A stretch of 64,000 bases of DNA from an uncultured Bacilli bacterium. Lineage in GTDB: Bacteria > Bacillota_I > Bacilli_A > RF39 > UBA660. This document shows, piece by piece, positions 54,400 through 54,558 of the stretch. The first letter of the stretch is position 1. Every line of letters begins with the position of its first letter. The translations under genes were made by a program, and so were the position numbers. The stretch spans positions 17,929-81,928 of the forward strand of contig CAKOSA010000002.1 in assembly GCA_934101865.1 (NCBI GenBank), in the 5' to 3' direction. Below the pieces are notes generated by a model. It was not told the origin of the DNA. It made no database searches and saw only the letters and a program-made list of their open reading frames with translations.

Positions 54400-54453
54400 C
54401 AGAAAAAGACTATAACAAATTAGAGTACTCCCATACTCTTTATGTTATAGTCT
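54400..54453 (-). terminator. Intrinsic terminator inside the 5' leader of the 508-aa gene
   Basis: On the minus strand, AGACTATAACA (54453-54443) pairs with TGTTATAGTCT (54417-54407). An inner stem AGAGTA/TACTCT lies between them, and TTTTTCTG follows. It ends ~25 nt before the ATG at 54376. Confidence 0.75.
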
Positions 54454-54477
54454 ATTCCATTTAATATAGTAGCTCCG

Positions 54478-54558
54478 CTACTTAATGTACCTGTCGGTAC
54501 AATCCCCCCCCCCATTTAATAAATGTACCTCAAAAAATTTTTTTGAAATTTTTTTCAT
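54478..54558 (-). CDS. Leader small ORF (26 aa) containing the G10 tract
   Basis: My hand translation gives MKKISKKFFEVHLLNGGGDCTDRYIK*. It is preceded by a conserved SD AGAAAGAGAGGTG, and the C-terminal GGGDCTDRYIK is identical in the second leader. Confidence 0.4.
   Translation of the reverse strand: MKKISKKFFEVHLLNGGGDCTDRYIK
54504..54513 (-). repeat. Homopolymeric G10 tract (C10 on plus strand) in leader ORF
   Basis: These are ten consecutive C residues on the plus strand. An identical-length tract lies at 60190-60199. Confidence 0.95.

Follow-up and report, generated by a model that had tools for sequence, protein, structure and literature searches.

We analyzed a 64,000-nt stretch of DNA (hereafter, the window) from an uncultured Bacilli bacterium, in which two leaders, each preceding an operon for exported proteins, carry an uninterrupted run of ten G's (G10) within a short upstream open reading frame (uORF), followed by a hairpin resembling an intrinsic terminator. 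All of the leader and operon features are located on the minus strand. Each leader is probably a phase-variable transcription attenuator, in which the length of the G tract acts as a heritable ON/OFF switch for the operon; from the sequence evidence described below, we put the probability of this reading at roughly two in three. An earlier note on this DNA had proposed slipped-strand mispairing in the tract and translation-coupled antitermination, and this proposal is supported by the variation in tract length among strains, by the conservation of the frames, the terminator, and the tract, and by a precedent in Streptococcus gallolyticus (PMC3894217).

The two leaders (approximately 54385–54625 and 60070–60330) have one architecture (Table 1). 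The order of the elements is the same in both: a promoter, a strong ribosome-binding site (RBS), the short uORF with its G10 tract, two hairpins (referred to as H2 and H3), the terminator-like hairpin with its run of five U's (U5 in the RNA, T5 in the DNA), and the operon. The leader 1 promoter type is also kept in L097–L099 and L106–L108, and the leader 2 promoter type in L084–L088, L100–L103, and L105, where L with three digits denotes a retrieved contig. The uORF starts (ATG at 54558 in leader 1 and at 60265 in leader 2) lie 8–9 nt after AGAAAGAGAGGTGCAAT, a 17-mer that is identical in the two leaders and includes a long Shine-Dalgarno sequence. The N-termini of the two uORFs are unlike in both sequence and length (15 codons in leader 1 vs 22 in leader 2), and the stretch of about 130 nt on the 3′ side of the tract is 98% identical between the leaders. 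This block is composed of H2, H3, a 16-nt linker, the long interrupted hairpin GACTATAACA...TGTTATAGTC, and T5, and the main gene's RBS and ATG follow at most about 30 nt past the hairpin and T5 in both cases. A consensus terminator scanner did not call the hairpin, owing to the small number of its G-C pairs and the length and interruption of its stem. An internal promoter in its 3′ arm was considered and rejected: the spacing is poor, and the RBS would be lost.

Table 1. Positions of the leader and operon features in the window
Feature	Position	Strand	Remarks
Leader 1 promoter-like site, sigma-70-like	54597–54625	-	TTGCAA, 17-nt spacer, TATTAT; TG before -10 (extended -10)
Leader 1 uORF RBS, AGAAAGAGAGGTGCAAT	54564–54580	-	same in leader 2
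Leader 1 uORF, G10 reading, MKKISKKFFEVHLLNGGGDCTDRYIK	54478–54558	-	stop TAG at 54478–54480
Leader 1 G10 tract	54504–54513	-	slippage-prone site; encodes Gly-Gly-Gly; homologous tracts are G9, G10, or G11
Leader 1 helix P1 (predicted)	54561–54571 with 54496–54507	-	5′ strand is GGTGCAAT + CTT
Leader 1 hairpin H2	54487–54500	-	GTACC-GACA-GGTAC; 5′ arm overlaps the P1 3′ strand (54496–54507)
Leader 1 G11-frame stop TAA	54482–54484	-	29 nt before the 5′ arm
Leader 1 hairpin H3	54469–54481	-	GTAGC-GGA-GCTAC; includes the G10-frame stop TAG
Leader 1 intrinsic-terminator-like hairpin + T5	54403–54452	-	outer stem 10 bp, internal loop, inner stem 6–7 bp; -19.1 kcal/mol
Leader 1 terminator outer arms	54443–54452 and 54408–54417	-	5′ arm GACTATAACA; 3′ arm TGTTATAGTC
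Leader 1 long-frame stop TAA (G9 or G12)	54420–54422	-	inside the 3′ internal loop; 2 nt short of the outer 3′ arm
Leader 2 promoter-like site, sigma-70-like	60302–60330	-	TTGAAA, 17-nt spacer, TAAAAT; TG before -10 (extended -10)
Leader 2 uORF RBS (17-mer AGAAAGAGAGGTGCAAT) and P1 5′ strand	60272–60288	-	
Leader 2 helix P1 (predicted)	60261–60271 with 60182–60193	-	
Leader 2 uORF, G10 reading, MKRSMNNYVKLLKVIYKYEQSFGGGDCTDRYIK	60164–60265	-	
Leader 2 G10 tract	60190–60199	-	
Leader 2 hairpins H2 and H3	60155–60186	-	H2 60173–60186; H3 60155–60167
Leader 2 terminator-like hairpin + T5	60089–60138	-	long-frame stop TGA at 60106–60108
Operon 1	51805–54376	-	500-aa exported protein (52874–54376) and 346-aa paralog (51805–52845)
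Operon 2	56831–60061	-	499-aa protein (58562–60061) and 530-aa paralog (56831–58423); same superfamily as operon 1

When the reading frames were recomputed, the positions and frames given in the earlier note were found to be correct for both leaders. In leader 1, the G10 frame ends at a TAG located 25 nt before the 5′ arm of the terminator-like hairpin, and the G11 frame ends at a TAA located 29 nt before it. With G9 or G12, the frame stays open for 45–46 amino acids (aa): it runs across the 5′ arm and the apex of the hairpin and on through its inner 3′ arm, and ends at CTC-TAA, 2 nt before the outer 3′ arm. The frames of leader 2 behave in the same way. The stop codon of the long frame is found at the same position as TAA in leader 1, as TGA in leader 2, and as TAG in L086, L089, and L109. 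Programmed −1 frameshifting on G_GGG_GGG, with H2 as the stimulator, was examined as a candidate and rejected, as it reaches only the short frame ending at TAA. It was also found that, in the leader-1-type copies, AAATG followed by nine more G's creates an ATG (54513–54515) that overlaps the tract and reads the long frame at G10; gene callers annotate a 31-aa ORF from it (also in L108, 369–464, and L111, 73–168). This ATG is probably incidental, because its Shine-Dalgarno sequence is poorly spaced (12 nt) or, in L111, missing; if it were used, it would blur the ON/OFF logic of the leader-1 type.

Apart from the two tracts, the window contains no G or C run that reaches a length of 8. The G runs on the minus strand comprise 34 of length 5, 7 of length 6, 1 of length 7, none of lengths 8–9, and 2 of length 10, so that the two G10 tracts are outliers in this spectrum. 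In dinucleotide shuffles, 0.20 G10 tracts are expected per window, and two or more were obtained in 5 of 100 shuffles. The tracts are thus over-represented for this composition, and the earlier note had remarked that they are conspicuous in this AT-rich DNA. In 198 kb of related contigs, too, the homologous tracts are the only G or C runs that reach 8.

The lengths of the homologous tracts were then compared. Homologs of the downstream protein number 901 and come from metagenome assemblies (mostly in ENA), and 26 further leader copies were recovered from other gut metagenome contigs. Together with the two of the window, they provide 28 tracts, of which 23 are G10, 4 are G11, and 1 is G9; these lengths were read from consensus assemblies, where minority variants inside samples are invisible. 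The contigs were grouped by their encoded protein. In one group (P0004), five contigs from five samples encode an identical protein and differ by 0–1 mismatches per 1,800 flanking nt, and their tracts are G11, G11, G10, G9, and G10. In another (P0023), which shows 1–5 flanking differences, the tracts are G11, G10, and G10. The tract is by far the most mutable site of the locus. In favor of real length variation, one of the G11 tracts is in a contig at 78× coverage, and lengths other than G10 occur in contigs that, to judge by their names, came from differing assembly pipelines. The earlier note had named invariance across strains as the outcome that would count against a switch; the tract length is not invariant, and G9, G10, and G11 all occur among near-identical contigs. 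In the consensus assemblies of natural populations, 27 tracts have the predicted OFF lengths and one has the predicted ON length (G9). The small ORFs annotated by gene callers differ with tract length, and in the G9 contig the long form (44 aa) is annotated. A protein-database search with a chimera of the uORF peptides, made to count tract states, scored nothing; apparently, small ORFs are not usefully indexed there.

The conservation of the leader was examined in an alignment of nine haplotypes from the tract to the terminator. Three features were found. One is that the G columns of the tract are invariant and never interrupted in the nine haplotypes, against an average column identity of 91% in the neighboring sequence; together with the lack of other such runs in the 198 kb of related contigs, this speaks for selection for the homopolymer. 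Another is that the variation between haplotypes falls in loops, linkers, and internal-loop bulges. In H2, H3, and both stems of the terminator, every pair cell holds a standard pair (243 of 243; 100%), with three covarying pairs: H2, paired in 100% of its cells, has one compensatory change from C-G to U-A; H3, whose loop is GGA, GTA, or GAA, has a compensatory change from G-C to A-U; and the inner stem of the terminator has one covarying pair (U-G, U-A, or C-G), its outer stem being invariant. When one strand was slid by 1–3 columns as a control, only 22–49% of the cells were paired. The last feature is that the start frame of the uORF relative to the tract is constant across N-termini of 14, 15, 22, and 31 codons, including one of the 15-codon N-termini, that of L111, which is unrelated in sequence to the others; this constancy, like the annotation of the 44-aa long form in the G9 contig, supports a real uORF. 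The pattern of two short frames and one long frame holds in eight of the nine haplotypes having the uORF start on the contig. A classical antiterminator was also considered as an alternative fold and rejected, since none appeared in the stepwise folds; therefore, the ribosome is left as the obvious agent that would prevent termination.

From these observations, we infer the following course of events. A sigma-70-type promoter would start the transcript, and a ribosome would load on the strong RBS of the short uORF. The G10 tract would gain or lose a G by slipped-strand mispairing during replication, perhaps also by slippage of the RNA polymerase or the ribosome. When the tract length is 1 or 2 modulo 3 (G10 and G11), the ribosome would stop 25–29 nt before the hairpin and U5, the terminator would form, most transcripts would end there, and the operon would be low or OFF. 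When the length is 0 modulo 3 (G9 and G12), the ribosome would translate the 5′ arm and the apex, then also the inner 3′ arm, and would stop 2 nt short of the outer 3′ arm; the hairpin would then be unable to form behind the polymerase, and read-through would turn the operon ON. H2 and H3 are probably pause or spacing elements that let the ribosome catch the polymerase.

Several points weigh against a heritable switch of this kind. The predicted ON length is found in only one of the 28 tracts, while one in three would be expected if the phases were equally likely; G10 could be a selected functional state, with the ±1 lengths being rare mutants or homopolymer errors. The dominance of G10 is compatible with a contingency locus that is mostly OFF, and equally with a selected G10 state or with slippage at the level of the RNA or the ribosome. 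Furthermore, each of the covariations represents one event between two clades. The frame pattern by itself is not significant: in about 8–10% of the trials with random sequences of the same composition, one frame extends through the hairpin without a stop while the remaining two end 20 nt or more ahead of it. We therefore did not use this pattern as evidence, and it is the architecture as a whole, with its conservation, that carries the case. In the haplotype L109 (1–301), a 2-nt length difference makes the uORF end at a TAA just before the tract, with G10 intact; this may be a recently decayed switch or an assembly error. In addition, most of the post-tract substitutions are synonymous when read in the G10 frame, and all of them are non-synonymous when read in the long frame. 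The long peptide itself is therefore not conserved, and thus it would be the position of the ribosome, not its product, that matters; for the switch model, this substitution pattern is neutral. The long-frame product was also considered as a conserved small protein or a precursor of a peptide made by ribosomes and modified after translation (RiPP), and this candidate was rejected: all of the between-clade differences are non-synonymous and lie in RNA loops. Finally, the polymerase of Bacillus subtilis outruns the ribosome, so that coupling in this lineage is an assumption. The results from S. gallolyticus and Lactococcus lactis show that coupling can work in Bacilli.

In a rival explanation, G10 is simply the length at which a functional leader peptide (...GGGDC[T/I]DRYIK) or a conventional stalling attenuator is in frame, and G9 and G11 represent loss-of-function mutants or homopolymer errors of sequencing or assembly rather than adaptive switching. 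The share of G10 among the tracts (82%), the synonymy of three of the four post-tract substitutions in the G10 frame, the invariant position of the TAG stop, and the low coverage (5–12×) of several length-varying contigs are in line with this explanation. However, a constraint on the peptide leaves the unbroken run unexplained, because synonymous GGA or GGT codons would be possible in this AT-rich genome: GGAGGTGGAG, for example, encodes the same peptide as G10. Two of the "synonymous" changes form the compensatory pair of H2, and there is no alternative antiterminator that a stalled ribosome could favor. Moreover, G11 was found in four samples, in one of them in a contig at 78× coverage. We consider this explanation to be quite unlikely.

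Another explanation keeps the attenuator but makes it mainly non-heritable: slippage of the RNA polymerase, or +1 slippage of the ribosome, on G10 would send a fixed fraction of ribosomes into the long frame, read-through would be graded or stochastic, and the length changes in the DNA would be a by-product. G10 is the mode of every haplotype (23 of 28 tracts), as expected if one length is optimal. A tRNA-Gly can re-pair perfectly anywhere along the run, and GGG accounts for only 16% of the Gly codons. The homopolymer has been kept although GGA or GGT would give the same peptide. On the other hand, the length differences between otherwise identical strains are real at the DNA level, and nothing that would stimulate a +1 frameshift, a slow A-site codon for instance, is evident, GAU being the codon that follows. 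In bacteria, polymerase slippage is best documented on A or T runs, not on G runs. Slippage of this kind is thus an unlikely main mode of action.

In addition to H2 and H3, a helix formed by the RBS of the uORF and the tract (P1) was predicted, in which the RBS pairs with the 3′ end of the tract and the adjoining ATTGTAYC (ATTGTACC). The three bases that follow GGTGCAAT in the 5′ strand vary (CTT, TCC, CCT, or CCC), and they are always pyrimidines able to pair with G. In L111, an unrelated RBS, CCCUCUUAU, pairs with AUGGGGGGG. The pairing probability of P1 is at least 0.9 in seven of the nine haplotypes, and P1 was not predicted in L089 and L109, where the start codon has moved upstream. In these model folds, P1 looks like an accessory that may close the RBS once the tract has been transcribed, and it may limit ribosome loading to a co-transcriptional window.

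These pairings raise the question of whether the leader acts as a structured RNA, binding a protein or a ligand through P1, H2, and H3, the tract pairing with the pyrimidines of the RBS and the uORF frames being incidental. The high probability of P1, also in L111 with its unrelated RBS, the covariation in H2 and H3, and the z-scores of the folds (−5.3 and −7.0) would agree with this. Nevertheless, the search of Rfam gave no match at the gathering score in the window, and even at E ≤ 10 only chance-level matches appeared in 54300–54800. P1 takes only 3–7 of the ten G's, which leaves the perfect G10 unexplained, and the uORF start is in frame across unrelated N-termini. The loss of P1 in the two haplotypes with the moved start codon ties P1 to the uORF. 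Such an RNA is, in our estimation, very unlikely to be the explanation.

The leaders have a mosaic structure as regards the types of their promoters, uORF N-termini, and hairpins (window, 54385–60330; L084, 6270–7001; L102, 9280–10001; L105, 1097–1501). In several strains, a promoter of the leader 2 type, which is fused to the ortholog of the gene at 52874–54376, comes directly after rseP, and these strains are without the 5.7 kb located between the two leaders of the window, that is, the paralog-2 operon, the AAA_14/DUF4143 gene, and the AbiEi-like gene. From the sequences, the mosaics and the loss of the 5.7 kb look like the outcome of recombination between leader copies. A more far-reaching picture would be that the leader is a portable, recombining cassette, spread by gene conversion across the multigene exported-protein family of one uncultured gut Bacilli lineage. 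In this picture, the tract would serve both as the slippage site in the DNA and as the RBS-closing partner of P1 in the RNA, one pioneer ribosome coupled to the polymerase would decide on termination, and recombination between leaders would delete or duplicate cassettes as a second layer of variation; we regard this picture as tentative and rather doubtful.

The leader is restricted to one sublineage, because the species representatives of GTDB are without it: an exact 21-mer search of the one-genome-per-species GTDB contigs gave no match, and both the leader and any G run of 8 or more are absent from the species representatives that encode homologs (L003–L081). In L003 and L004, the ortholog stands directly after another gene. 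A search of viral contigs also gave no match. Many contigs begin or end inside or next to the leader (L001, L002, L083, L088–L092, L101, and L109–L113), and L113 starts within the tract. Such assembly breaks are consistent with an element that is multi-copy, heterogeneous in length, or both.

The closest known system is that of the pil1 and pil3 loci of S. gallolyticus, in which a leader-peptide gene with internal GCAGA repeats precedes a premature terminator (Danne et al. 2014, PMC3894217). There, a short peptide ending 39 bp before a terminator of −18.7 kcal/mol gives low expression, out-of-frame changes in the repeat number place the stop within or after the hairpin and give high expression, and the model was confirmed with terminator-deletion, start-codon, and three-frame-stop mutants (PMC3894217). 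The G10 leaders, which are known from sequence alone, have the same set of parts: a promoter, the RBS and ATG of a short leader ORF, a slippage-prone repeat in this ORF, a (here predicted) premature terminator, and an operon for a (here presumed) surface structure. The stability of the terminator (−19.1 kcal/mol here) and the position of the short-frame stop (25–29 nt upstream here) are also similar, the shifted frame stops within the hairpin, the low state is (here by prediction) that of the majority, and there are two loci per genome. The differences are that the repeat is a G10 homopolymer, not 13–22 GCAGA units; that one in three lengths gives a long frame, while two in three do so in S. 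gallolyticus; and that H2, H3, and the RBS-tract pairing are extra elements of the G10 leaders. Moreover, there is no sequence homology, and the G10 leaders belong to an uncultured gut Bacilli host and an uncharacterized exported-protein family instead of sortase pili.

The pyrBI and pyrE operons of E. coli are the classical translation-coupled attenuators. As predicted for the G10 leaders, a leader ORF is read through an intrinsic terminator, a close ribosome blocks the hairpin, and the position of the stop sets termination. The rph-1 frameshift, which lowers pyrE expression, is a natural case of an upstream frame change that alters attenuation. Unlike the G10 leaders, pyrBI and pyrE sense UTP through polymerase pausing and have neither a hypermutable tract nor heritable switching. 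As for the distances, whose effect has been quantified, a stop codon close to the terminator represses termination, and termination is maximal with the stop beyond about 30 bp (Li et al. 2015, PMC4824070). If a terminator lies within the first 100 bp of an ORF, it escapes the ribosome except where the two machines are coupled by pausing, and 100–200 nt are quoted for the ribosome to catch the polymerase (PMC4824070). In the G10 leaders, 147–199 nt separate the uORF ATG from the point at which the hairpin ends and the U tract starts, which is within this catch-up distance.

The G10 leaders also resemble the poly-G and poly-C loci of Campylobacter, Neisseria, and Helicobacter (PMC6321876, PMC5320596) in having a G tract of 9–11, changes of ±1 between near-identical strains, products that are surface-exposed (here presumably), and a host-associated life. 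In the classical contingency loci, however, the tract lies in the structural gene, where it causes truncation, or in a promoter spacer, whereas in the G10 leaders it lies in an upstream leader ORF, is predicted to act via termination, and leaves the structural genes intact. Ribosome-mediated attenuators of Firmicutes, such as bmrB-bmrCD of B. subtilis (PMC4191407), have a short uORF and then, upstream of the genes under control, an intrinsic terminator, and, as predicted for the G10 leaders, the ribosome position decides the outcome. This type answers antibiotic-induced stalling via antiterminator folds, while in the G10 leaders the variable would be the reading frame.

As for the operons, the earlier note had spoken of two paralogous surface proteins. 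The paralogy is borne out, while "surface" is based only on the N-terminal signal or anchor sequences that are read from the translations of the first gene of each operon. None of the four operon proteins matched Pfam or NCBIfam, the 500-aa family has no sequence match in PDB, and the AlphaFold model of the 500-aa protein was unusable (mean predicted local distance difference test score, pLDDT, of 40). Between the two operons (54746–56647), an AbiEi-like antitoxin homolog (a weak NCBIfam match) and an AAA_14/DUF4143 ATPase are encoded; in other strains, the same ATPase is found on the opposite side of the operon, beside a T4SS-DNA_transf protein. Directly downstream of operon 1 lies an ATP synthase operon (47140–51641; ATP-synt_C, two ATP-synt_ab, and a gamma-like subunit), which is syntenic in all of the related contigs. 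Farther away, two ORFs (26805–28019 and 28669–29883, minus strand) encode identical 404-aa proteins, which represent a recent duplication or a mobile element and are unrelated to the 404-aa AAA_14/DUF4143 protein at 55433–56647. The GC skew of the window is extreme (−0.3 to −0.5 on the plus strand), the coding minus strand containing 21% G and 11% C. In sister lineages (L003, 2000–2560; L093, 1380–1510; L104, 1100–1500), the orthologous genes are C-rich and nearly G-free on the coding strand, that is, they have the opposite skew. These opposite skews suggest a very strong strand-asymmetric mutation bias combined with inversion.

In our literature search, only one leader-peptide repeat tract controlling a premature terminator was found to be experimentally described, namely that of S. 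gallolyticus. The mechanism is accordingly less novel than the earlier note had implied, since it was shown before in that species (PMC3894217). To judge from the sequences, the G10 leaders are not a new mechanism but would be an independently evolved member of the leader-peptide repeat-tract attenuators. If this is true, an unrelated second example, based on a homopolymer and residing in uncultured Bacilli of the human gut, means that this logic has evolved more than once, and that a tract switch in a leader peptide can be recognized from its sequence. Scanners for phase variation, which target tracts in genes and promoter spacers, would class the present tracts as intergenic. The tract switch would also account for the assembly breaks at the leaders, and it points to stochastic variation at the surface of a gut lineage that has a reduced genome and is not yet culturable.

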